From: Candidatus Bathyarchaeota archaeon
GTDB lineage: Archaea; Thermoproteota; Bathyarchaeia; Bathyarchaeales; Bathycorpusculaceae
Assembly (NCBI GenBank): GCA_963828195.1
Contig: CAWHDT010000005.1
Coordinates: forward strand, 544,001 to 608,000
DNA length: 64,000 bases
Direction: 5' to 3'
Both the position numbers and the translations under genes were made by a program. Position 1 is the stretch's first letter. The number at the start of each line of letters is the position of its first letter. The notes under the pieces are model-generated. The model saw only the letters and a program-made list of their open reading frames with translations, searched no databases and was not told the DNA's origin. Positions 5,103-38,601 of this stretch are shown here, one piece after another.

Positions 5103-6488
5103 CTAAATTATGCCAAAGTGCCTTAAAGCTTCTTCAACTAAAGCAACTTTGTTTCTTGGACACGGATTAGCTCTTTTCGCACCTTTCCGCTCAGATTGAC
5201 CTCTAACGAGGTTAATGTTGTGTGCTTCTTTTACTTGTGCAATCCAGCTTGGATGAGGCACAAACCCATAAGTCTCTTCGATGTGGTGTTGGATTTCTCT
5301 GTAAGTTGCCTTAATTCCTTGCGATGGATAACTTGGCTTTTTATCTATTTTGCATGAATCAAGTTTACGCTTAAAGTTTTCCTGTTCCTGTTTTTCTTCG
5401 CTTGCATTCTGAATTAGAGTAAGCCATTTGTTTTCTCCCTCAATCGTGATTCCGCAAGCCTCGGCAGGTGTCTTACCTTTCAACGCTTCATGTGGTCGGA
5501 TGTAATTGTGGAAAAGCTGATAACCCTGAAGAATTGGGGTTTCGTTAATCTTTAATCCTCTCATCGTCTTTTCTCTATCTCGAATTTCTCCATTCATGCG
5601 CTCCATTTTGTTATTGTGGATTGAGCCTTTGAGTGTGATATCTTTTACATGTATGGCTTCTGGAAAAACGTCTTTAGCGATAACTGCATAGGTCGGTAAT
5701 CCATCAGTTATGAAGATTTTTGGCTGTTTCTCCATTAACTCTTTTGCTTGATAGAAAAGTTTGCGTGCGTCATGCTTGTCTTTTGACTCTGCCACTTCTT
5801 GAGCAATCCAAAATCTTGTTTGGTCGTCCATCATGGCAAACAAATATTTCATGTTGCCGTTAATTTTGACATATACCTCGTCTGCTCTCCAAGTGTCACT
5901 TACATTCGGAACTATCTTTTCGGCATATTCTTTCATTAAGCCTATGTACTTTTTTATCCACATGAAAACCGTTTTGTGAGAAACCTTAACACCTAAAAGC
6001 TGTAAGGATTCTTGAGTGTTTCTTAGGCTTTCACCGCTAAAGTAAAGTTGCATCGCTGTCGTGACCGCTTGGGGATTGTGTTTCATTTTTTCAAAGCCGA
6101 TGTTTATGGTGAAGTATTTGTGGCAGTTTCGGCAGTGGAATTTCTGGATTGTTCCGCTTTTGTTTTTTCTCACACCGTCTTTTTTGAGGTTGCTTGAACC
6201 GCAAAATTGGCAGTTGCTAACGTTCACTTCTTCTATAACTCGGTTAGTTTGCACTTCTTTTCTTAATTGGCTGGCGAAATCAACCGCAAAAATATGTTTA
6301 CAAATTAAGTGTCTGTATGTGTTATCGGGGCATGAGCAAACCCATTCATTTCCACGTTTGCTTACGGTGTATTCGCCATTGTGAGACTGAGATTTCACGG
6401 TGTAAGTGCAATCATCTAATCTTTTGATTTGACCGTTTGATTGTGCGATTGCTTGACCCCGTTCTTCCCGAGTTGTTATGGTTGCCAT
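5103..6488 (-). CDS. IS6-family DDE transposase with N-terminal SWIM finger and Zn ribbon
   Basis: SWIM CSCPD...CKH; CQFC...CRNC ribbon; HTH SLRNTQE...VSHKTVFMWI; DDE core WRADEVY, ITDG, NNKMERMN, HNYIRPH. Confidence 0.92.
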   Translation of the reverse strand: MATITTREERGQAIAQSNGQIKRLDDCTYTVKSQSHNGEYTVSKRGNEWVCSCPDNTYRHLICKHIFAVDFASQLRKEVQTNRVIEEVNVSNCQFCGSSNLKKDGVRKNKSGTIQKFHCRNCHKYFTINIGFEKMKHNPQAVTTAMQLYFSGESLRNTQESLQLLGVKVSHKTVFMWIKKYIGLMKEYAEKIVPNVSDTWRADEVYVKINGNMKYLFAMMDDQTRFWIAQEVAESKDKHDARKLFYQAKELMEKQPKIFITDGLPTYAVIAKDVFPEAIHVKDITLKGSIHNNKMERMNGEIRDREKTMRGLKINETPILQGYQLFHNYIRPHEALKGKTPAEACGITIEGENKWLTLIQNASEEKQEQENFKRKLDSCKIDKKPSYPSQGIKATYREIQHHIEETYGFVPHPSWIAQVKEAHNINLVRGQSERKGAKRANPCPRNKVALVEEALRHFGII

Positions 6489-14991: not shown

Positions 14992-16377
14992 CTACATCAC
15001 CTTATTCATTATGCCTTTCTTGTACATTGCATCACAGATTCCCTTGGATACGGCGTCACGTGTCTGCTTAAGCGAAGCTGACCCAGATATGCTGCCGATT
15101 GTAATGTTTGGCGAAGCAATGTTCACGTTTGACGCCGCCGAGCCGCCTTGAACTTTAACGTTGCCTGATAAACCCTGCAACGACGAGCCCAAAGTGTTGG
15201 TTTTATGCGCCAACTGATCGCTAAGTGAAAGACTCTGCGTAATCTGTTTGTTAAATTCCTCAGCAGCGGGAGCCGCATGTGCAAAGCATAAGTGGCTAAG
15301 CGCTGACCCTAAGTCGCCAATTACGCTGCTCAGCGGCTTCACAGCGTTCGCAACGGCGTTAATCGCCACTTCAAAAGCCTTCACCGGAACAAGCGCAACA
15401 TCCAAGTCGGCAACTAAAACCTCTTTGAAAAAGTTAGCCACTGGAAGCAGCACGTTGCTGTAAGCCGCGTTTAAAGCATTCCATAAAGCGTCACCTGCAG
15501 TTTTCAAAGCGTCAAAAGCAGTTAATACGGCTCCGCCGACTATGTGGCCGATGTCGTTGATGACGTCGCGGAAAGGCGCACAGTTCTCGTAAGCCCAAAT
15601 TATCCCAGCGGTTAAACCCGCAACTGCCAATGCAACCAGAATTATCGGGTTAGCATCCATAACAACGTTGAGAGTTGTTTGAAGGCCAGTCCATATCTGC
15701 GTTGCATTTGACGCTAAACCGATAACGTTTACGAACGCGGGAATAACGGTGAGGGCTGACATTATAAGCGTGCTGTTGTAACTTCGCTGCGCCTCGGAGA
15801 CCCGTTCCGCGTCGATTGACTGGGTTTGCTCAGCGAGGCTTAACGCGTTCGCCGCATCTTGGGCTTGAAGACTATTTTCGCCGTATTCCGCAACCGCTTT
15901 GTTGTATGCCTGCTGCGCCAGCGTAACGCTGTTTGCAGCTTTTTCCTCCATAAGATTAGCGCGGCTAAGGCTAACCTGCGCGTTTTCAATATTGTTTACA
16001 GCCATATACAGCATGGCACCGCTCATCGCAGCGCTATTCATCTGCATCGCGTTTTGACTGAAACTTTGGCTGGACGCATCCGTCGCAGTGCTTGCCGCGC
16101 CTGTGCTTGTCGTTATCTGGTTCATGCTTACCTGCGCGGTGCTGCCGGCTTGAGTGAAAGCGTCCTGCATCTGGCTGGTGTCAGCTTGCACCGTGGTAGT
16201 CATGGTTGAAACGCTGCTTGCGGTTTGCTGCATGCTGTCTGAAACGTCGCTGCTCATCGTGTCAGAAGCTTCGCTGACATTGCTGCTCATATCAGTAAAG
16301 TTGCTGCTGACCTCTTGAAAAACGTCTGATGCGTCATCAGTTGCAACTATGTCTATTTCTACAGGAGCTCCGCTCAT
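14992..16377 (-). CDS. Tail tape measure protein
   Basis: N-terminal IDIVATDDAS, Ala/Ser/Gln-rich helical body, ANPIILVALAVAGL motif; downstream of the tail chaperone. Confidence 0.85.
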   Translation of the reverse strand: MSGAPVEIDIVATDDASDVFQEVSSNFTDMSSNVSEASDTMSSDVSDSMQQTASSVSTMTTTVQADTSQMQDAFTQAGSTAQVSMNQITTSTGAASTATDASSQSFSQNAMQMNSAAMSGAMLYMAVNNIENAQVSLSRANLMEEKAANSVTLAQQAYNKAVAEYGENSLQAQDAANALSLAEQTQSIDAERVSEAQRSYNSTLIMSALTVIPAFVNVIGLASNATQIWTGLQTTLNVVMDANPIILVALAVAGLTAGIIWAYENCAPFRDVINDIGHIVGGAVLTAFDALKTAGDALWNALNAAYSNVLLPVANFFKEVLVADLDVALVPVKAFEVAINAVANAVKPLSSVIGDLGSALSHLCFAHAAPAAEEFNKQITQSLSLSDQLAHKTNTLGSSLQGLSGNVKVQGGSAASNVNIASPNITIGSISGSASLKQTRDAVSKGICDAMYKKGIMNKVM

Positions 16378-20306: not shown

Positions 20307-20669
20307 TTAACCCAGTAACAAATCTTTGATTTGCTGCTCAATCTCCAGTGCGAACTCAGGCAGATGCTGATTAACCGAGTTAGTCAGGAAAAGTCTTGCA
20401 GACATTTTCCTTGTGCCAAATTCCACGTAAAATGCATATGGCGCCGTCGCTTTCACTTTAAGTTGAAAATTGCTGGGCTGCTCAATCGCTAAGGTACTTT
20501 TTAAATAGCCTGTTCTGACTGGAACTAACGTGTTTGCAGTCGCCAAAATATTCTGCGCAACATTCATCATTGCCTGCTTCACAGCCTCCGGGTACTGCTC
20601 ACAAAGACACTCAAAGCAATGGCTCAGCAACTCAAAATTTGACAAGTTAACTGAAATTTGAACGCTCAA
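20307..20669 (-). CDS. HK97 gp10-family tail completion protein
   Basis: PVRTGYLKS...APYAFYVEFGTRKM.ARLFL. Confidence 0.9.
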   Translation of the reverse strand: MSVQISVNLSNFELLSHCFECLCEQYPEAVKQAMMNVAQNILATANTLVPVRTGYLKSTLAIEQPSNFQLKVKATAPYAFYVEFGTRKMSARLFLTNSVNQHLPEFALEIEQQIKDLLLG

Positions 20670-27001: not shown

Positions 27002-27247
27002 TTAGTTTTTAGCGGCTGAATTTGAGCTTGCCGCTCCAGCTTTCACTTCTTGGGCGCCAGCAACAATATCCTGTGTACCCTACGTTGTATCGCCATTATA
27101 GTATTCTTCAGTGCCCTTAGCCATCATGCCTACGCCGCCAGCGATCATGCCCAGGCTAGTCGCTGTGCCGCCGTAAATAGCCGAAACCATGCCAGCAAGA
27201 GTAGTAACTGCGCCAAGAAAAGTCAAGATTTTATCACCATTCTGCAT
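27002..27247 (-). pseudogene. Small two-TM viral protein interrupted by an in-frame TAG at 27080-27082
   Basis: MQNGDKILTFLGAV...YYNGDTT*GTQDIVAGAQEVKAGAASSNSAAKN; SD GAGGTGA before ATG at 27247. Confidence 0.45.
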
Positions 27248-27376
27248 ACTTTCACCTCTCAAAACTTTTGTTTGCCCGTTTCTCCCAGCCAAGAAGCCAA
27301 AACAAGATAGCTTCTTCAACTGGACAAAAAAATAAAAATGGAAACTAAACGTAGAGACCCAAACGAAACAGCAAGT

Positions 27377-28309
27377 TTAGCTTGTAGCTAACCCCGTTAC
27401 TTTCACTATTGCTTCTCCATACGTCACACAAGGCGAATACCTTGTACTCAACGTTACATCAACGGAATCGAATTCTTTTTTGATCTCCAAATCAGACGTC
27501 AAAGGGCGTTTTAATTCGCGGCTGCCTCAACCAGCAACCTTAACGAAAAAGCCCAATGGCGAATAGGCGGCGCTTAGGTTTTGTCCTGTGCTGATTATGT
27601 ATGCGTTTCCAGCTGGAACAACCGTGCTTGCGTGAACCCCCATTCCGAAGATTTCGCCGAGCTTTCCGTTCTGGGTTGGCGTGTCTCCGCCTGCGCCGCC
27701 GTACTGTGCCCACAGACTGAACTGTGGCAGGTACATTACGTCGCGCATGTTCACTGGATTAAGCAGAATTGTGTCAGCGATTAAGCTGTAGCCTTCAATG
27801 GTGGCTTTAGCAGCCAAAATATCTTTGCTGCCGAGCGCGTTTGCAATTGTGAACTCGGTTCCTGTTGCGCCCATGCTTTTACCCGTTGATCCGAAGCTGT
27901 TTCCTGCTGCTGAATCAATAACTGTCATGCAGTCGCTGTCAATTGTGTAAGCCATTCGCCTTGCAAGTCGTCGCAGTTGGTCTTCAATCACTGGAATGTA
28001 TAGGTCTTCGATGTTTTCTCGGCTGATGCGTTCACGCAAACCCTTCTTGTACGGCGTCACAGTGATGGTGTTGTAGGGCGTGAAATCCATCATGATTTCG
28101 CTGCCCTCCGAAACCTCACTTATCGCTGCTGAGCGACTGCCATTTTGCTTAACGAAAGTAGCGATCTTGCCAGCAACCAGCGGGAACTCTGGAAACAGTT
28201 TTTTGACAACCAAAGCGGGCATTGTTAGCTCTACGATTTTTTTGTGCAGCGATGGGTACGCTATGGCTCCTGTGCTATCCCATGAAAGTGCATCTTTAAC
28301 GAAACTCAA
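27377..28309 (-). CDS. HK97-fold major capsid protein in two exons (28309-27541 and 27513-27377), 301 aa after removal of a 27-nt BHB intron
   Basis: EVSEGSEI, YKKGLRERISRE, RRLARRMAYTID, ILLNP, GEIFGMGV. The ORF stops at 27527 but the same frame continues KRPLTSDLEIKKEFDSVDVTLSTRYSPCVTYGEAIVKVTGLATS, which looks like the terminal capsid strands. Confidence 0.88.
27514..27540 (-). other. 27-nt bulge-helix-bulge mRNA intron with in-frame UGA
   Basis: GGGC-UUUU / UCGU / UA^A / GGUUGCU-GGUUGA-GGCAGCC / GCGA / AU^U / AAAA-C-GCCC: two 3-nt bulges around a 4-bp helix, a 7-bp intron stem and an exon stem. Confidence 0.85.
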
Positions 28310-28321
28310 CTTAAATCACCT

Positions 28322-28798
28322 TTACGGAATACAAGAAAGCAAAGCGTAAATGACTTGGCCGGGCGCTGTGGAACTGGTTAATGCTCTGCCGATCCATATT
28401 TCTGCGTTGTCAAGTTGGGGTTGCATTGCGGCTTGCGTATACGCTGCGGGAGCTGTCATGACCACTACGCCTGCAACTTGTCCGTTTGCGTCGCTCGCTA
28501 TTCTTTGCCCCGCCGTGATGGCTCCTGAAGCAGTTACCAGCCCCGTTGTATTGTTGCCTGAAGCGGTTACCCTGACGAGCCCCCTGCAAATCACAGTTAC
28601 GTTTGAGCCGGCTGCGCCGCCTGTTAAAGCAACACCTATGACGCTTTTGCTTGGTCCAGCGGTTGGCTTGACGAGCGGGATGAATCCGGGGTTGCTGATG
28701 TAAACTACTTGTCCAGCAGCCACGGTTGCTCCCGTGTCAACTTGAGCAGTTATTAGGTAGCGGTCGCTAACTAGTGCAGTTGTTCCTTCTAAAGACAT
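28322..28798 (-). CDS. Capsid cement/decoration protein (DUF2190-like)
   Basis: VAAGQVVYI...VIGVAL...AAGSNVTVICRG...ITAGQRIASDANG; between scaffold and capsid genes. Confidence 0.75.
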   Translation of the reverse strand: MSLEGTTALVSDRYLITAQVDTGATVAAGQVVYISNPGFIPLVKPTAGPSKSVIGVALTGGAAGSNVTVICRGLVRVTASGNNTTGLVTASGAITAGQRIASDANGQVAGVVVMTAPAAYTQAAMQPQLDNAEIWIGRALTSSTAPGQVIYALLSCIP

Positions 28799-28809
28799 TC
28801 AAAGTCACC

Positions 28810-29925
28810 TTATTGGAATCCTGAAAGTCTCTTATGCGCTTTAAGGAGGTCTTTAAACCAGTTGTAATTGCCAAGTGCGTCCCGTTGAGCTTCGTCGACG
28901 GCTACTATGCCTCTGCCGCTTGCACGCTTAGATTCAACGTCAGATCCTTCGTCTTCCGTGTCATCTTCGCCTTCGTCTTCTGGTTGAAGCTGTTTTGAGA
29001 GCTCGCTTATTTTCTTGCTCAAGCTCCGCTTTGTGGCTTTTTTTGCAACTTCGCCTTCAAGCTCGGCTACTTTACTCTTTAAAGCTTCAACTTCAGATTC
29101 GGAAGAATTTGTCTGCGTTATCTGCTTCTCAAGCTGCTGCAGCTGATCCATGAAATCTTCGTACGTCAACTTTTTCGGCGCTGATTCTCCTGGTGCAATG
29201 TTAACTATGCCTTGTGCCTGATATGGAGAAGCACCATACTGACCATTATGTTCAGACATGTGCCTCACCTCTCCTTTGCTTTTCAGATTATTTTTGTTTT
29301 CAGGTTCTTGCGGCCTTCGCCTAGAACCCACATCATCACCTGTGTAAACAAATGACTGCGAATCGGTAACTGACTTGAGAATAGCATCCCACTGCCCCGC
29401 GTTCATGGCAGCGAAAAAACCCACGGGGGCAAACGCTGTATCCTTGTACGCTGGACTTGCGACAATGCTTAATTCCCGAACCTTCGGCTTATGGATAATT
29501 TCCCATGCGCCAGGACACAAGTGCACAAGCATGCCTTCTTTGCGCGTTGGGCGCTTGCATTTGCTGCATTCAACATCTTCGCTGTCAAGCTGAATACTCA
29601 CATGCGTCACGTAGCTGCGAAGTATTTTCTCAATCAGCTTTTCTTCCCCGACTTCAGCGCGGAAAAGAACCTGATCGCCTTCACGCTTAGCCTCAGAAAC
29701 TTTCCCCACAACCATCAACGCACTCTCCGCATGATCCACACGCAACTGAGCACCAGCAAGGCTTGAAGCGACAAAATCCAAGTCTTCACTTGGAACCTGC
29801 CACTTATTCGCGTTAACACTCGTGTCGATGGCTACACCCTCGATGTTCACGAGTTTCTCGTGCAGCGCGTACTGAGCGCTCACGCCTTCCTGAGCCTTAA
29901 AAGGCACAAAATAACGTAGTTGCAT
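28810..29925 (-). CDS. Prohead maturation protease fused to a scaffold domain
   Basis: IEGVAID...LRVDH...VVGKV...HVSI...RELSIVASPAY (HK97-type protease), then an acidic coiled coil; internal SD GGAGAGGTGA plus ATG at 29259. Confidence 0.85.
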   Translation of the reverse strand: MQLRYFVPFKAQEGVSAQYALHEKLVNIEGVAIDTSVNANKWQVPSEDLDFVASSLAGAQLRVDHAESALMVVGKVSEAKREGDQVLFRAEVGEEKLIEKILRSYVTHVSIQLDSEDVECSKCKRPTRKEGMLVHLCPGAWEIIHKPKVRELSIVASPAYKDTAFAPVGFFAAMNAGQWDAILKSVTDSQSFVYTGDDVGSRRRPQEPENKNNLKSKGEVRHMSEHNGQYGASPYQAQGIVNIAPGESAPKKLTYEDFMDQLQQLEKQITQTNSSESEVEALKSKVAELEGEVAKKATKRSLSKKISELSKQLQPEDEGEDDTEDEGSDVESKRASGRGIVAVDEAQRDALGNYNWFKDLLKAHKRLSGFQ

Positions 29926-30273: not shown

Positions 30274-31671
30274 TTATTCTCCTCGCTCTTGTCCTTGGTT
30301 TATCTGTTCCATGACACCTTTCACGGTTTGCTCCACAATTTTCTGACCTTCACTTTTGGGTTTAGGCTTAAGCGTTGGCAACCCTTGGTCCTTTGGTTCT
30401 GCTGGGTACCCGAGTTGCATGCGGGCTTCGGCGATGCTTATTATGCCGTTTTGCACCAGGTCGCTGATGTACTTGGCTTTATCCTCTATGGGGGCTTCCC
30501 AAATTGGCCGCCACGTGATCTTGGGAATTTCAAAGCCCACACCAAACGCGTGTTCTATTAGCTGTTTAAACAGGACAGTTTCCAATATGTCACCGATGAT
30601 CTCCTGCATCATCCGCAACCGGGTAACGTACTCCTGCATGCATATTTCAGCCGTAGCGCGGTTGGTGCTTTCGCTTTCTCCAAGAAAAATCTTCGGCACC
30701 CCAAGGACCGCTTCCCGCTGCTTGTAGAGGTAGTCAAGCCAGAACTGGATGTTCACGTCTTTGGTTAGGCTTGGAATGACGTCAACGGCGACGTCGCCGC
30801 GCACAAACACGTCGGTGGCTGGTTTGCGGGTGCTGAAAGCCTCCATAAGCGACTGCAACTGGGCATCGCTGAATGGTCTCTCGGGCGTGCCTGCTTTCAC
30901 AACAAGCATCGGCTTAGTATAAGTGTGGCAGATAACGGAGAGGTCATCTTCAAGTTGATCCAGCAGCGCCTGAACCTTAAGCAGCGGCCTAAGCAGGCTT
31001 GTGCCGTAGCTGCTCTCATACCACCAGCTTTTCGCGCCCCAGCGAAAATGCACCATATCCTGAGCAGCAAAAACAACCGGCGGCACAGTGAGAAGCTGAA
31101 TGTACCCGAAAATGTCTCCGTACTCGTTATGGCGTACGCGCATGTGGACGGGGTCAAGAGGCTTAAGCCATGTAACCTCGCCGTTGGTTTCGTCTCGGCA
31201 GATTTCTAAGAAAGCGTTTCCGAACACAAGCATGTCCGACGCAACGATGCGCAGGGTTTGCAGGATGTTTTGTTCGTCAAGCCAATCCGTGAGCCACCCG
31301 CGAACGTTGTCGGTTCCGCCGTTTAGCTCGAAACCGTTGCTTATGGCGAGGTTAACGGTGACATCGACCGCCGCCTTGATGTACGGAGTAAACGTGTACA
31401 GATCCTTGTACTTGGGCAGGTCCTCGATTGGCGTTGCGCCCCAGATGCGATCCATGTAGGCCGTGTAGGGCGGCGTAACGAAGCCTGCGCCTGAACCTTT
31501 AAGCATGTACCGTGAAACGTAGCCGTAGAGCATGTCATCTTTCTTCCAGCTAAGAGGCACCTCCTCCTCAATCTGGCGCCTGCTAACGTCCTGCGGAACA
31601 TCCCGTTCAGCAGAAAACCTGCTCTTTACGGTTTGGAAGCTTTTGCGGATTTTTTGTGAGACAAAACTCAT
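30274..31671 (-). CDS. Portal protein
   Basis: DMLVFGNAFLEI, LKPLDP, MVHFR, YGTSLL, VLGVPKIFLG, NRATA, GIISIAEARMQLG. Confidence 0.93.
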   Translation of the reverse strand: MSFVSQKIRKSFQTVKSRFSAERDVPQDVSRRQIEEEVPLSWKKDDMLYGYVSRYMLKGSGAGFVTPPYTAYMDRIWGATPIEDLPKYKDLYTFTPYIKAAVDVTVNLAISNGFELNGGTDNVRGWLTDWLDEQNILQTLRIVASDMLVFGNAFLEICRDETNGEVTWLKPLDPVHMRVRHNEYGDIFGYIQLLTVPPVVFAAQDMVHFRWGAKSWWYESSYGTSLLRPLLKVQALLDQLEDDLSVICHTYTKPMLVVKAGTPERPFSDAQLQSLMEAFSTRKPATDVFVRGDVAVDVIPSLTKDVNIQFWLDYLYKQREAVLGVPKIFLGESESTNRATAEICMQEYVTRLRMMQEIIGDILETVLFKQLIEHAFGVGFEIPKITWRPIWEAPIEDKAKYISDLVQNGIISIAEARMQLGYPAEPKDQGLPTLKPKPKSEGQKIVEQTVKGVMEQINQGQERGE

Positions 31672-31727: not shown

Positions 31728-32366
31728 TCAGCCTGTAAGATTTGGGGAAGATGGGGAGCTGCATTCAAGGTTAAGTCTTTGGGCAGACATGTTCAGAACG
31801 GGTTGCTTGCAAGCAATGCGGGTAATGTCTGCTTGCCTGCTCCACCGTACCTCAACACGTTTGCTCATGTCTCGCAGAAGAATAGCCTGGTACTCTTTGA
31901 CCTGAAATCCAAAAAATTCTTGCGCGAAAAGTACTGGATCTTCAGGCACAATTATGCTCAGGAGAGCTGTTTCAGGTGCCTTCTGACTTTCTTGGTGACC
32001 TCTATCAGCATCCGCCGAAGCCGTGACCGCTGACTTTGTTTTATTTAGCATCGCCTCAAGTTTGTCTAAGTCGTGGTCTATTTGGCGTTCGTCGATTCCT
32101 TTTACCATGCTGTTAATGATTTGTGCCGTGTAAGCGGCGATTCTTGCGTAGTGCTGACGTTCGGCTATGGTTAGAGGGCGCTGTTTTCCTGTCTCGTCAA
32201 CTACGCGCTGGATTTTTCCGCGTGCATAGTTGCTTGCAATGTCAAAGAGGTCTTCCAGCTGGATTATGAGCCGTTGGCGGGTACGCTGAGTATCAACATG
32301 CAAGATGCGACGCATTTTGTTTAGTCGAACGTTAGCTCGCCTATCAAGACTTAACCTGCAGGGCAA
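31728..32366 (-). pseudogene. Putative small terminase fused in frame to a dead N-terminal stub of the large terminase
   Basis: Helical N-terminal ~110 aa, then PEDPVLFAQEFFGFQVKEYQAILLRDMSKRVEVRWSRQA (TerL Q-motif and start of Walker A) with GKT replaced by DIT; the rest of TerL is missing before the portal gene. Confidence 0.7.
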
Positions 32367-33589: not shown

Positions 33590-35002
33590 CTAATCTCCAA
33601 GTATTCTTCTGAACGCAGGATACATTTCCGCTGCTCTTTCCTGCATCAACAACTCATAATACTGGTAAATGATGCCTACTGACAGCAATATGCCTGTGCC
33701 CGTGCCGAATGCGCCTAGGAAGTCTGCGGTGGCAGCTACGAGCCCAACGATGATTCCGCCTAGAACCGTGACGATTGGAATATATCGTTTAAGGACAGCT
33801 TCGATAGGTCTTCCTGATCTGCGGTATCCTGGAATCTGCATGCCTGAATCCATAAGTTGCTTCGCTACTTTTGAGGGTCCTAAACCGCCTACTTCAAGCC
33901 AAATAAGGGAGAAAACTGCGCAGAAAGCGACTAGGGCGCCTAAGTAAAATGCTGCTCTTAACGGGTCTGCTCCGACTTGCAGAATGTTAGCTGGAGCAGT
34001 CAAGAGATATGCGAGCCCGCTGATAGGCTGGACTGTGCCGGAGCTGGTTACGTTAAATTGACCTATTATCTGGAATAGGAGACTGTGTCCAGGAGCTGGA
34101 CGCCCCTGAGTTCCCCAGAGCAGTTGTGAAAAGAAGTAAACGTTCGCAAATAGTGCTGACGCAAATATAACTGGAAGGTTAGAAACGTACAGCAGTTTAA
34201 TTGGGTATCTGCTTCTGAAGCCTTTGTATCCTGCATAACTCATCGGAAGCTCTATTCTGATGCCGTTCAAGTAAATGACCACTAAAAAGACCCCGATGGT
34301 GGCGAAAAATCCGAGTAAAGATGGGTAAACCCCGCTGACTTGACCAAACGCCCATTGCAGAAGCGTTTGCCCTTTACTTAAGTAAGCCGAAAGGGAACCT
34401 ACAAACAACCCGGTGGTGGGCGAAAAGGTATCCCAGAGAACGCTTTGGGCAACGCCGGCCATGATGAACAAGCTGATTCCGCTGCCGAGGCCCCAGCCTT
34501 TTTGGACAAGTTCATCCATTAACATGACAATTATGCCTGCGAAGATAAGTTCGAGAAAAATCACTAGTGTTGCGCTTCCGGTGATTGCGCCGAACATGCC
34601 GCTTATTAGGTATGCGGCAGCTTGGATTCCGGTGAGAAGAATCGTGAAGACTTTGCTTGCAGAAGTGAATAAGCCTCGGTCTTCAGCGTTTGACATGTCA
34701 CATTCGATAATGGAGGATCCTGCAAGCAACTGCAAGATTAAGCCGGCTGTGACGATGGGTCCGATTCCCAACTGCATTAAGGTTCCGCTGTTTGAAGCGA
34801 AAATGACTCTTAATGAACTAAACTGGCTTTCCGCCGCTGAGGAAACTCCGTAAAGCGGGATTTGAGCCATGACAAGATAAATGATTAAGACAAGCCCTGT
34901 CCAGAAGATTTTCTCGTTAAAACTTACTTTTCTTTCCGGTTTTTTGATTTCAGGTAAGACTCTTCCTAATGGTTTGAAGAGGCTTAGGAATCTTCCGGGC
35001 AT
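33590..35002 (-). CDS. secY: Protein translocase subunit SecY
   Basis: LGIGPIVTA, KGWGLGSGISLFI, YPIKLLYVSNLPVI, GMQIPGYR, GTGILLSVGI. Confidence 0.98.
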   Translation of the reverse strand: MPGRFLSLFKPLGRVLPEIKKPERKVSFNEKIFWTGLVLIIYLVMAQIPLYGVSSAAESQFSSLRVIFASNSGTLMQLGIGPIVTAGLILQLLAGSSIIECDMSNAEDRGLFTSASKVFTILLTGIQAAAYLISGMFGAITGSATLVIFLELIFAGIIVMLMDELVQKGWGLGSGISLFIMAGVAQSVLWDTFSPTTGLFVGSLSAYLSKGQTLLQWAFGQVSGVYPSLLGFFATIGVFLVVIYLNGIRIELPMSYAGYKGFRSRYPIKLLYVSNLPVIFASALFANVYFFSQLLWGTQGRPAPGHSLLFQIIGQFNVTSSGTVQPISGLAYLLTAPANILQVGADPLRAAFYLGALVAFCAVFSLIWLEVGGLGPSKVAKQLMDSGMQIPGYRRSGRPIEAVLKRYIPIVTVLGGIIVGLVAATADFLGAFGTGTGILLSVGIIYQYYELLMQERAAEMYPAFRRILGD

Positions 35003-37462: not shown

Positions 37463-38038
37463 TTGACAATCATGGGGAGCTTAATGGAAAAGGCAGATTT
37501 TGAGTGCAGAAAATGCTTAAAAACTGTATCCGCCGAGCAGCGCAGAGCCAGTCCGTTTTGTCCAATCTGCGGCGCATTGCTCATCATTAAGCCGCTGCCT
37601 AAGCATTGGCTTTTCCAGTTTAACCCTTCAGTTTACAGATGGCTTGACCGAGTCAAAGACACAAGGGCGCCTGAACAGTGGCTGATAAGTCAACATGTCC
37701 AGTTGATTCGCAAAGGCGATTTAGTTGCAGTCTGGGGGTCAGGGCAAAAAGCCGGAGTCTACGCCTTAGGCAAAGTAATAACTAACCCGAAGCAAAGCCT
37801 TCTCAACCTTGGACAAGAGAAGTATTTTTTAGAAGAATATGGCGTCAGCAAGTTTCAAGAAAACTGCAGCGCTTTTGTGGAATATTTCCAAGTTTGCGTG
37901 GAGAAACCGCTTCTTCAAGAAGAGTGCAAAAAAGATAACGTGCTCTCAAACATGCAGATTTTAACAAACTCGCATGGAACAAACTTTCGACTTTCACCTG
38001 AACAGTGGAGTAGAATCCAGACCCTGATGGGGAAATAG
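37463..38038 (+). CDS. Zn ribbon plus EVE-domain protein
   Basis: CRKC...CPIC; HWLFQFNP...IRKGDLVAVWGSG...GVYALGKV...GTNFRLSPEQW. Confidence 0.8.
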   Translation: MTIMGSLMEKADFECRKCLKTVSAEQRRASPFCPICGALLIIKPLPKHWLFQFNPSVYRWLDRVKDTRAPEQWLISQHVQLIRKGDLVAVWGSGQKAGVYALGKVITNPKQSLLNLGQEKYFLEEYGVSKFQENCSAFVEYFQVCVEKPLLQEECKKDNVLSNMQILTNSHGTNFRLSPEQWSRIQTLMGK

Positions 38039-38601
38039 GCAATCCGACGAGGACACCAGCACCAACTAGACTCTGCCGAACAGCGTGCAAGCGAAACGGC
38101 TGGGCAGAAAACTAAATTGGTTTGTTGGGTTTGGGCTATGTTTGCCCCGCAGTTGATGCATTTAGATGCGTCTGGCTGGTTTTTGGTTCCGCAGTACGAG
38201 CATATTGTCATTCCGGGCGTTGTTGCTTCGGTGGGTGCAGCTGTTTGGGCTTTGTTGATGTTGTCTCTGATTATTTTGTAGACTTTGTCTGCGTCTGCTT
38301 TGGGCACGTCGTTTAGTACAAGCGGCGCGGTTTGGGTTTTGAAGGTGCATTTGATTGTTGAACGCATTAGTCCCTGCTCGATGGTTACGTTTTCGAAGTC
38401 GATGTAGTTGTAGTCGGTGTAGTCTTTTTTTAGCCCAAGCGCGTGGGGGTGGCGCAGAATGACTCTTTTGTTTGTGATGACAACCGAGTCTATGTCGATT
38501 TTGTAGTGGTAAAACTTTTGTTTAATGTACAGTTCAATGGTTTCGTTTTGACCCAGAATGTTAGTTAAATCATCAGGCGCCGCCAACAAGAAATCAACCA
38601 A
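37915..38601 (-). CDS. Bacterial-type PH domain plus Zn-ribbon protein
   Basis: LGQNETIE...VVITNKRVIL; CSYCG...CINCG; the C-terminal overlap with the EVE gene is probably spurious. Confidence 0.7.
   Translation of the reverse strand: MVDFLLAAPDDLTNILGQNETIELYIKQKFYHYKIDIDSVVITNKRVILRHPHALGLKKDYTDYNYIDFENVTIEQGLMRSTIKCTFKTQTAPLVLNDVPKADADKVYKIIRDNINKAQTAAPTEATTPGMTICSYCGTKNQPDASKCINCGANIAQTQQTNLVFCPAVSLARCSAESSWCWCPRRIAYFPIRVWILLHCSGESRKFVPCEFVKICMFESTLSFLHSS

Follow-up and report, generated by a model that had tools for sequence, protein, structure and literature searches.

The DNA analyzed here, a 64-kb stretch of 64,000 nucleotides (nt) from a Candidatus Bathyarchaeota archaeon (this whole stretch is called the window below), contains a tailed provirus whose major capsid gene is interrupted on the minus strand by an in-frame stop codon. 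We think it very probable, as the best explanation overall, that positions 27540-27514 are an archaeal bulge-helix-bulge (BHB) intron in the mRNA of an HK97-type capsid protein, which would be spliced by host enzymes and, less certainly, is the relic of a mobile intron. Judged by comparison with related sequences, the BHB intron in this virus capsid gene is genuine and comparatively well supported.

The capsid gene and its 27-nt insert

The product of the capsid gene (minus strand, 28309-27377) is a major capsid protein of the HK97 type, with matches to the Pfam family PF25209 (Phage_capsid_4, E 6e-9) and to the major head protein family phrog_1650 (E 2e-16), the latter extending to profile position 299 of 300, i.e., beyond the in-frame stop. 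Exon 1 (27541-28309) has a TTG start at 28309 and consists of 256 codons and the first base of an Ile codon. The putative BHB intron of 27 nt (27514-27540) follows, and exon 2 (27377-27513) completes the Ile codon with two bases and adds 44 codons and a TAA. When the gene is read straight through, the frame runs to ...PLGFFVKVAG, stops at TGA (27529-27527), and goes on for 50 more codons in the same frame: five in or across the insert (GSREL) and 44 capsid-like residues (KRPL...GLATS), then TAA (27379-27377). Excision of 27540-27514 yields V-I-K-R-P and a product of 301 amino acids (aa). A preliminary description of this DNA, made from the letters of the sequence, had pointed out the early stop and the resumption of the frame with capsid-like residues, which are indeed seen on the minus strand, and it had the boundaries of the insert, the V-I-K-R-P junction and the 301-aa product all right. 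The predicted model of an intronless capsid homologue has a mean pLDDT (predicted local distance difference test score) of 55.3, with residues 244-287 below 50.

DNA contigs of two runs from two studies cross the insert without any difference (27457-27649 in run X1 and 27429-27732 in run X3; one of the two runs is possibly the source sample of the window). In the soil run X1, further contigs matching exon 1 depart from the window sequence exactly at 27540 and 27543 and continue as other intron variants, of which one is of a short type and one has at least 255 nt; several alleles thus coexist in one sample.

RNAfold of 27556-27497 on the minus strand gave a minimum-free-energy structure of -21.1 kcal/mol, which is the BHB fold as it had been drawn beforehand. 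The whole hBHBh' motif spans 27504-27554. Its outer exon-exon helix of 8 base pairs (bp) with one bulged C joins GGGC/UUUU (27554-27547) with AAAA-C-GCCC (27512-27504), and its central 4-bp helix joins UCGU (27546-27543) with GCGA (27519-27516). Two 3-nt bulges, UAA (27542-27540) and AUU (27515-27513), lie on opposite strands. The inner hairpin (27539-27520) has a 7-bp stem of GGUUGCU (27539-27533) and GGCAGCC (27526-27520), and its loop GGUUGA contains the TGA. The insert thus agrees with the definition of a BHB in an excerpt of PMC6379350 (two 3-nt bulges on opposite strands with a 4-bp helix between them) and also with the strict hBHBh' form with flanking helices.

A protein search found 238 capsid homologues, mostly of 297 aa; 120 of them were listed and 18 were aligned with the window protein. 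Thirteen of the 18 are full length and read GFFV-I-KRPL, with a gap of nine codons opposite KVAG-stop-GSREL of the window, while the other five stop a few residues beyond GFFV, just where the window open reading frame (ORF) ends as well. None of the full-length homologues has a sense codon at the position of the stop; the nine-codon gap stands there instead. A change of the genetic code, with TGA read as a residue, was rejected because no homologue has a residue at that place. At the DNA level we compared 185 related loci (80 from metagenomes and 80 from IMG/VR, two sets that overlap, and 25 from genomes, 24 of which have Bathyarchaeota or Bathyarchaeia in their title), which together with the window make 186. 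No insert is present in 162 of the 186, which read V-I-KRPL, so that the expectation of the preliminary description that intronless homologues would read FFV-I-KRP held for these loci as well as for 13/13 full-length proteins. An insert at exactly the site of the window was found in 22 loci, the window included, the 21 others being of other sizes; there are 16 distinct short forms of 25, 26, 27, 28, 29, 30, 31, 68 and 70 nt, and one of 649 nt (L104). One further locus (L105) has its insert 13 nt upstream, and L024 was not scored, the stretch being masked by N. Intron-bearing capsid genes occur on viral contigs and in several genomes.

The distribution is patchy among close relatives. The closest relatives of the window, at 89-95% capsid identity, carry an insert of 25 nt (L107), one of 70 nt (L052) or none (L106 and L001). 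A quick maximum-likelihood tree of the proteins encoded by exon 1 requires at least nine changes in intron presence, at least six of which are forced by well-supported branches; the tree does not separate gains from losses. It was built from 126 distinct rows out of 184, with the omission of two loci without a single exon-spanning high-scoring segment pair (taken as L023 and L024); L022 is without a row of its own and was possibly merged with an identical one. Two irregular records were met among these loci. A related capsid gene has a frame shift near residue 60, off the intron site (L023:3176-3186), which is either an assembly error or a real frameshift. A record titled Limnocylindrales bacterium (L011), together with P0205, shows a Bathyarchaeia-type capsid locus and SecY in a bacterial-named bin, and the contig is probably mis-binned.

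Splicing geometry and constraint on the exons

The archaeal splicing endonuclease EndA cuts after the second base of each 3-nt bulge. We applied this rule to 19 variants of 12 lengths, i.e., the 16 short forms and three long ones (L104, 649 nt; L192, 663 nt; L193, 534 nt). In 19 of 19 it restores GU(U/A)-AUA-AAA (V-I-K), V[I]KRPL and the full frame, and no other rule fits every length. The L105 intron (47 nt, L105:1743-1789) lies inside a Leu codon of APLGFFV, 13 nt upstream of the usual site, and pairs CUCC with GGAG in its central helix, with ACA and AUU as bulges and an inner stem longer than 10 bp; the same cut restores ...AAYAPLGFFVIKRPL... and a frame of 297 aa. Two independent insertions that follow one rule are a strong argument for the mechanism.

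The UCGU/GCGA central helix and the two 3-nt bulges are present in all 16 distinct short variants, and RNAfold predicts a BHB in each; the three long variants keep this geometry as well. Bulge 1 is UAA, AAA or AAG, and bulge 2 is AGU, AUU, AAU or UUU. Among the short variants the inner stem comprises 3-9 stacked pairs, in the long forms more, and its sequences are compensatory: GGCUGC/GCAGCC, GGUUGC/GCAGCC, GACUGC/GCAGUC, CGUUACCAU/AUGGUGGCG, CGACG/CGUCG, CAGCG/CGCUG and UAGA/UCUA. In a MAFFT alignment of 13 variants of 25-31 nt, 94.3% of cells form pairs, compared to 41-57% when the partners are slid by 1-3 columns. Five of the seven inner-stem pairs have changed on both sides, as was foreseen for intron-bearing copies that keep their BHB by compensatory changes, and 1 in 500 shuffles attained the covariation score. 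The outer helix beside the central helix is just 1-2 bp in L018, L021, L022 and L053.

The coding sequence behind the insert is maintained. Most intron lengths are not multiples of three and place exon 2 in another frame, and exon 2 is open for 44 codons to the conserved stop in 16/16 short-intron copies, with a median ratio of nonsynonymous to synonymous substitution rates (dN/dS) of 0.10 (56 of 120 pairs with usable dS), which indicates purifying selection. That an exon stays open and constrained behind frame-shifting inserts can be explained only if the insert is removed from the message or some exotic recoding takes place. The recoding alternative supposes that no RNA is cut and that ribosomes bypass the gap in the manner of phage T4 gene 60, read through the stop or shift frame at the hairpin. 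The stable hairpin with a stop codon at the gap does resemble the T4 gene 60 bypass element, but the window has no matched take-off and landing codons (GUU stands before the insert, with no in-frame GUU before AAA CGC), gap length varies between 25 and 663 nt, a readthrough product would contain residues absent from every homologue, and the invariant 3-nt bulges and 4-bp helix have no role in bypassing. We therefore regard recoding as highly improbable.

The codons on both sides of the insert point to the same outer helix. Among distinct flank pairs, the Arg codon is CGC in 10/10 intron-bearing versus 16/84 intronless sequences, the Gly codon is GGC in 9/10 versus 24/84, and the Val codon ends in U or A in 10/10 versus 42/80 (the other 38 being GTG or GTC, with Ile in four further pairs); the mean number of outer-helix pairs is 7.4 of 8 versus 5.3 of 8. 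This synonymous bias in the exons fits selection for the outer helix, or co-conversion of the flanks during homing.

Plain inactivation, by a nonsense mutation to TGA or by a dead DNA insertion (e.g., a small palindromic mobile element), with the capsid gene a pseudogene in all carriers, has to be considered since real damage exists in this provirus: its terminase gene is truncated (see below), and the small hydrophobic protein gene after the capsid gene (27080-27319, minus strand) has an in-frame TAG at 27082-27080 where three relatives (L001, L106 and L107) have Gln, with the frame running on for 26 more codons. From the alignment, this TAG is a plain nonsense mutation, and next to the intron it offers a contrast that shows how a real nonsense mutation looks. 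At the capsid site, however, the homologues have no codons in place of a sense codon, exon 2 is open and under purifying selection behind frame-shifting inserts, inserts of 12 lengths obey one splicing rule, synonymous exon sites are constrained to pair, and the intron-bearing genes are found on viral contigs and in several genomes. Inactivation of the gene in all carriers is accordingly very unlikely.

Splicing by the host would then proceed as follows. In the transcript the outer helix would arise from pairing between the Gly-Phe and the Lys-Arg-Pro codons, and the 4-bp central helix from pairing of the Phe-Val codons (UCGU) with GCGA of the intron. The splicing endonuclease of the host would cut after the second base of each 3-nt bulge, and RtcB would join the exons, giving the AUA Ile codon and the 301-aa capsid protein. 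Unspliced mRNA would stop at the TGA in the intron loop and give a 260-aa product without the last 45 residues. EndA and RtcB, which the preliminary description had assumed, are both encoded in the genome of this Bathyarchaeon: two EndA-family ORFs of 184 and 183 aa (PF01974, over the cut-off with 100 and 76 bits) and one RtcB (PF01139, 585 bits). The EndA paralogs lie in the regions of C5:510841-511077 and C3:320336-320590, and RtcB at C1:44696-46006. One EndA paralog has His at what we take to be the position of the catalytic His, and the other has Thr. The host EndA is probably an alpha-beta heterotetramer, a reading that depends on this position. In a paper of 2006, a hetero-oligomeric splicing endonuclease was reportedly linked to pre-mRNA splicing in Crenarchaeota.

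Long introns, their probable nuclease and the proposed origin of the insert

Three long BHB introns occupy the same capsid site, L104:1059-1707 (649 nt), L192:1400-2062 (663 nt) and L193:1458-1991 (534 nt). The L104 intron encodes a 199-aa protein (L104:1112-1708) with two treble-clef zinc ribbons and a C-terminal domain. Its three nearest homologues in IMG/VR (L191, L192 and L193) were found via this intron ORF, and they too lie in capsid genes at residue 256/257 with BHB ends (in L191 the 5' part of the intron is cut by the contig end). A putative endonuclease ORF inside the intron is found in relatives (L104 and L191-L193) and not in the window, and the genome of the window holds no copy of it. 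The zinc-ribbon part, and that part only, matches PHROG families annotated as HNH endonuclease (E 2e-7) and gives weak Pfam matches. In the intron ORF family, which comprises seven homologue clusters, RPD...DxK is invariant, and the family profile matches Sulfolobus Hjc and ST1444 in the PDB (E 1e-4 to 6e-4) across the PD...(E/D)xK motif. For the AlphaFold model (mean pLDDT 76) the best VIA-align Z is 5.5, the PD-(D/E)xK homing endonuclease I-Ssp6803I reaches Z 4.4, tied with unrelated folds, and Foldseek against the PDB returned nothing at E <= 0.001. From the profile match and the motif, the protein appears to be an Hjc-like PD-(D/E)xK nuclease and a probable homing endonuclease.

The long and short forms can be linked. 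L052, which has a capsid close to that of the window, carries an intron of 70 nt that agrees with the 663-nt intron of L192 at 27 of 30 positions of the 5' end and at 23 of 29 of the 3' end; this indicates that the 70-nt intron is a deletion derivative. Long forms with a nuclease gene and a deletion derivative of 70 nt suggest that the mini-introns are probably relics of a homing intron. In the simplest account, a homing intron would invade the site, lose its nuclease gene and leave a minimal BHB that must stay spliceable. A full-length ancestral intron, like those of 534-663 nt in relatives, would have encoded the nuclease with two zinc ribbons and an Hjc-like domain, of which the window would retain the minimal form. 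That the 27-nt intron of the window is such a minimal relic of a mobile BHB intron targeting a conserved capsid site is less certain than the intron itself, and common descent of this 27-nt form with the same long intron, which the account assumes, is likewise less certain.

The preliminary description had offered another reason for the presence of the intron, namely that it is kept since splicing by EndA and RtcB gates production of full-length capsid protein and so acts as a timing or host-state switch on assembly. An in-frame stop is found in 15 of the 16 distinct short introns, and in the clade of L002, L003, L004 and L029 one loop codon varies among TGA, TAG and TAA but is never a sense codon. 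With such stops, unspliced mRNA would give a truncated product and not a capsid protein with an insert; the variation in this clade, a small sample, could be a sign that a stop in unspliced mRNA is selected for. However, 162 of 186 loci manage without the intron, relatives at 89-95% capsid identity differ in this respect (none in L001 and L106, introns in the window, L107 and L052), stops are fairly frequent by expectation in nine A/U-rich codons and the copies are related, and a nuclease gene, a hallmark of selfish elements, is present in the long forms and points to a selfish homing intron rather than to an assembly switch. A selfish, formerly nuclease-bearing intron is better supported as the reason for its presence; the switch is in our estimate unlikely, and any regulatory role is speculation.

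A broader proposal can be put forward tentatively, and we hold it to be possible but rather less than even in probability. BHB introns with the Hjc-like nuclease may be an active selfish class that spreads among co-infecting Bathyarchaeia viruses through cleavage of capsid alleles that lack the intron; the 25-70-nt mini-introns may persist by destroying the nuclease target and thus protecting the virus, and their in-frame stops may prevent unspliced mRNA from yielding an assembly-poisoning capsid protein. If true, this would be the protein-spliced counterpart in archaeal viruses of the contests between group I introns and homing endonucleases in T-even phages, and capsid production in these viruses would depend on the tRNA-splicing enzymes of the host.

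The provirus and comparison with known introns

The genome of the window is 2.83 Mb in size and 96% complete. The host chromosome is that of a member of the Bathyarchaeia, as the SecY gene adjoining the element (33590-35002) encodes a protein 81-88% identical to Candidatus Bathyarchaeia proteins, and the structural module of the provirus adjoins host genes for SecY and ribosomal proteins. This module includes genes for portal, decoration protein, capsid, connector, a tape-measure-like protein and large fibre-like proteins. The portal protein gene (30274-31671, minus strand) matches PF04860 (E 6e-16) and phrog_9232 (E 2e-28), and the head decoration or cement protein gene (28322-28798, minus strand) matches PF09956 (E 1.4e-9). 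Between the two lies a 371-aa ORF (28810-29925, minus strand), possibly a scaffold or protease gene by its position only, with no PHROG family and only sub-threshold Pfam matches of coiled-coil type. The connector gene (20307-20669) and the tape-measure-like gene (14992-16377) follow, and near the far end of the module there is a DDE transposase with an IS240-type domain (E 4.5e-20) and a SWIM zinc finger (5103-6488, minus strand).

The terminase search gave no match anywhere in the 64-kb window. Upstream of the portal gene, at a place corresponding to that of the 455-aa terminase (PF03237) in the related genome G001, what remains of the large terminase gene (31728-32366, minus strand) breaks off at the Walker A motif, as identified by homology to G001: residues 123-182 are 71% identical to residues 4-63 of that terminase, and the homology then stops. 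A split terminase gene at this place was rejected, there being no room and no fragments; the gene is truncated instead. With a truncated terminase gene and a nonsense mutation in the gene next to the capsid, the provirus copy in the window is probably defective. G001, whose SecY is 91% identical, has a homologous element (L001, C4:241713-256878) that flanks SecY on the same side, at a distance greater by about 7.5 kb, with an intact terminase and an intronless capsid gene; this element and that of the window could be either the same old insertion or insertions in the same attachment region. Elsewhere in the genome of the window there is a second, distant capsid gene (C9:172186-173079, 35% identity) with an intact frame of 304 aa, and a terminase match 5 kb from it (C9:167030-167629) indicates another provirus in the same genome. 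Further terminase matches are located at C6:22390 and C5:665045.

A number of observations weigh against the reading of the 27-nt insert as a spliced relic of a mobile intron. The fold of the single sequence has a z of -2.2, and 7 of 200 shuffles fold as well. Frame-joining BHB-shaped motifs number 33 in the whole genome, compared to 29 and 19 for decoys with 2-nt or 4-nt bulges. As the lone fold is weak and there is no genome-wide excess, the case has to be carried wholly by the comparison with relatives. In that comparison the central helix is invariant and hence uninformative for or against the structure, and many intron-bearing copies are related, so that the paired-cell and codon counts are not independent and are overstated. 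The inner stem of L056 (28 nt) is weakened to three stacked pairs. The 30-nt variant of L053 (L053:1271-1345) keeps the reading frame and contains no stop codon; its unspliced message would encode a capsid protein carrying 10 extra residues, which could be tolerated. The assignment of the intron ORF to a nuclease type is based on a short profile match and a motif. The provirus in the window is decaying, and its own capsid gene may no longer be expressed. A search for RNA runs that contain the locus returned none. We infer the splicing mechanism, with its cleavage, ligation and excised circle, from the anatomy of the intron and the enzymes of the host.

The scans also bear on how common such motifs are. 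The genome-wide scan returned no convincing second case of a frame-joining BHB. The same scan on the 25 genome loci gave 30 matches versus 16 and 21 for the decoys, and besides the capsid site none was convincing. Within the window the loose BHB motif occurs 142 and 108 times per strand versus about 96 in shuffles, and a strong BHB motif is combined with frame rescue at the capsid site only. A BHB-like match at 38035-38150 on the plus strand was taken as chance, the preceding EVE-domain ORF already having a complete Pfam match. Rfam and tRNA scans of the window gave no matches.

Some archaeal rRNA and tRNA BHB introns carry LAGLIDADG homing endonucleases (e.g., I-DmoI). They resemble the capsid introns in their BHB ends, in the optional endonuclease ORF and in a course of invasion, ORF loss and mini-introns; they differ in that the target here is an mRNA and the encoded protein has two zinc ribbons and an Hjc-like PD-(D/E)xK domain instead of LAGLIDADG. 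To our knowledge, this type of nuclease has not been described in archaeal introns. Self-splicing group I introns with homing endonucleases occur in bacteriophage genes. They, too, are selfish introns in conserved essential virus genes with forms that have or lack the homing endonuclease gene, but they are ribozymes, whereas the 25-31-nt forms described here are far too small for that and would depend on host proteins.

In protein-coding genes of Archaea the nearest parallel is cbf5. Watanabe and colleagues reportedly described, in 2002, a BHB intron in the pre-mRNA of crenarchaeal cbf5. Its hosts have a hetero-oligomeric splicing endonuclease, as is probable here. According to an excerpt of Yokobori et al. 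(2009; PMC2738675), cbf5 was as of 2009 the only protein-coding gene for which a BHB intron was reported as confirmed, with examples of 33-39 nt. Going by the same excerpt, the likeness extends to a short BHB intron that is patchy among relatives and lets the gene be called truncated or frameshifted. The gene there is one for a cellular RNA-modification enzyme of Sulfolobales and Desulfurococcales, in contrast to a structural gene of Bathyarchaeia viruses; that excerpt mentions no intron ORF for cbf5. The capsid gene has two insertion sites within 13 nt. The excerpt also cites Peng et al. for variants of the rudivirus SIRV1, in which 12-bp 'putative introns' were suggested and splicing was never shown. 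Those are likewise short inserts in protein-coding genes of an archaeal virus, but as far as the excerpt goes they keep the frame and may be translated, whereas most inserts in the capsid gene break the frame and have a full BHB.

The preliminary description knew of no BHB intron in a structural gene of an archaeal virus, and we found none in any virus gene in the literature searched, subscription journals and supplements being outside the search. The words 'intron' and 'splic' are absent from the main text of two papers on Bathyarchaeia viruses and proviruses (PMC10541130 and PMC11705971), whose supplements might list split capsid genes. The capsid gene would be the second protein-coding gene family with a BHB intron and the first in a virus, with comparative support far richer than for cbf5 (12 lengths, two sites, and both ORF-bearing and ORF-less forms). 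The concern that standard pipelines call such genes truncated is borne out by 5 of the 120 listed homologues, which end a few residues into the intron; such truncation by gene callers means that surveys of archaeal viruses will wrongly score these capsid genes as broken. Natural minimal EndA substrates within coding sequence would be provided by the forms of 25-31 nt. Taken as a series, the variants would display the full life cycle of a protein-spliced mobile intron in mRNA, from invasion through loss of the nuclease gene to the minimal BHB relic, and production of virus particles would depend on the tRNA-splicing enzymes of the host.

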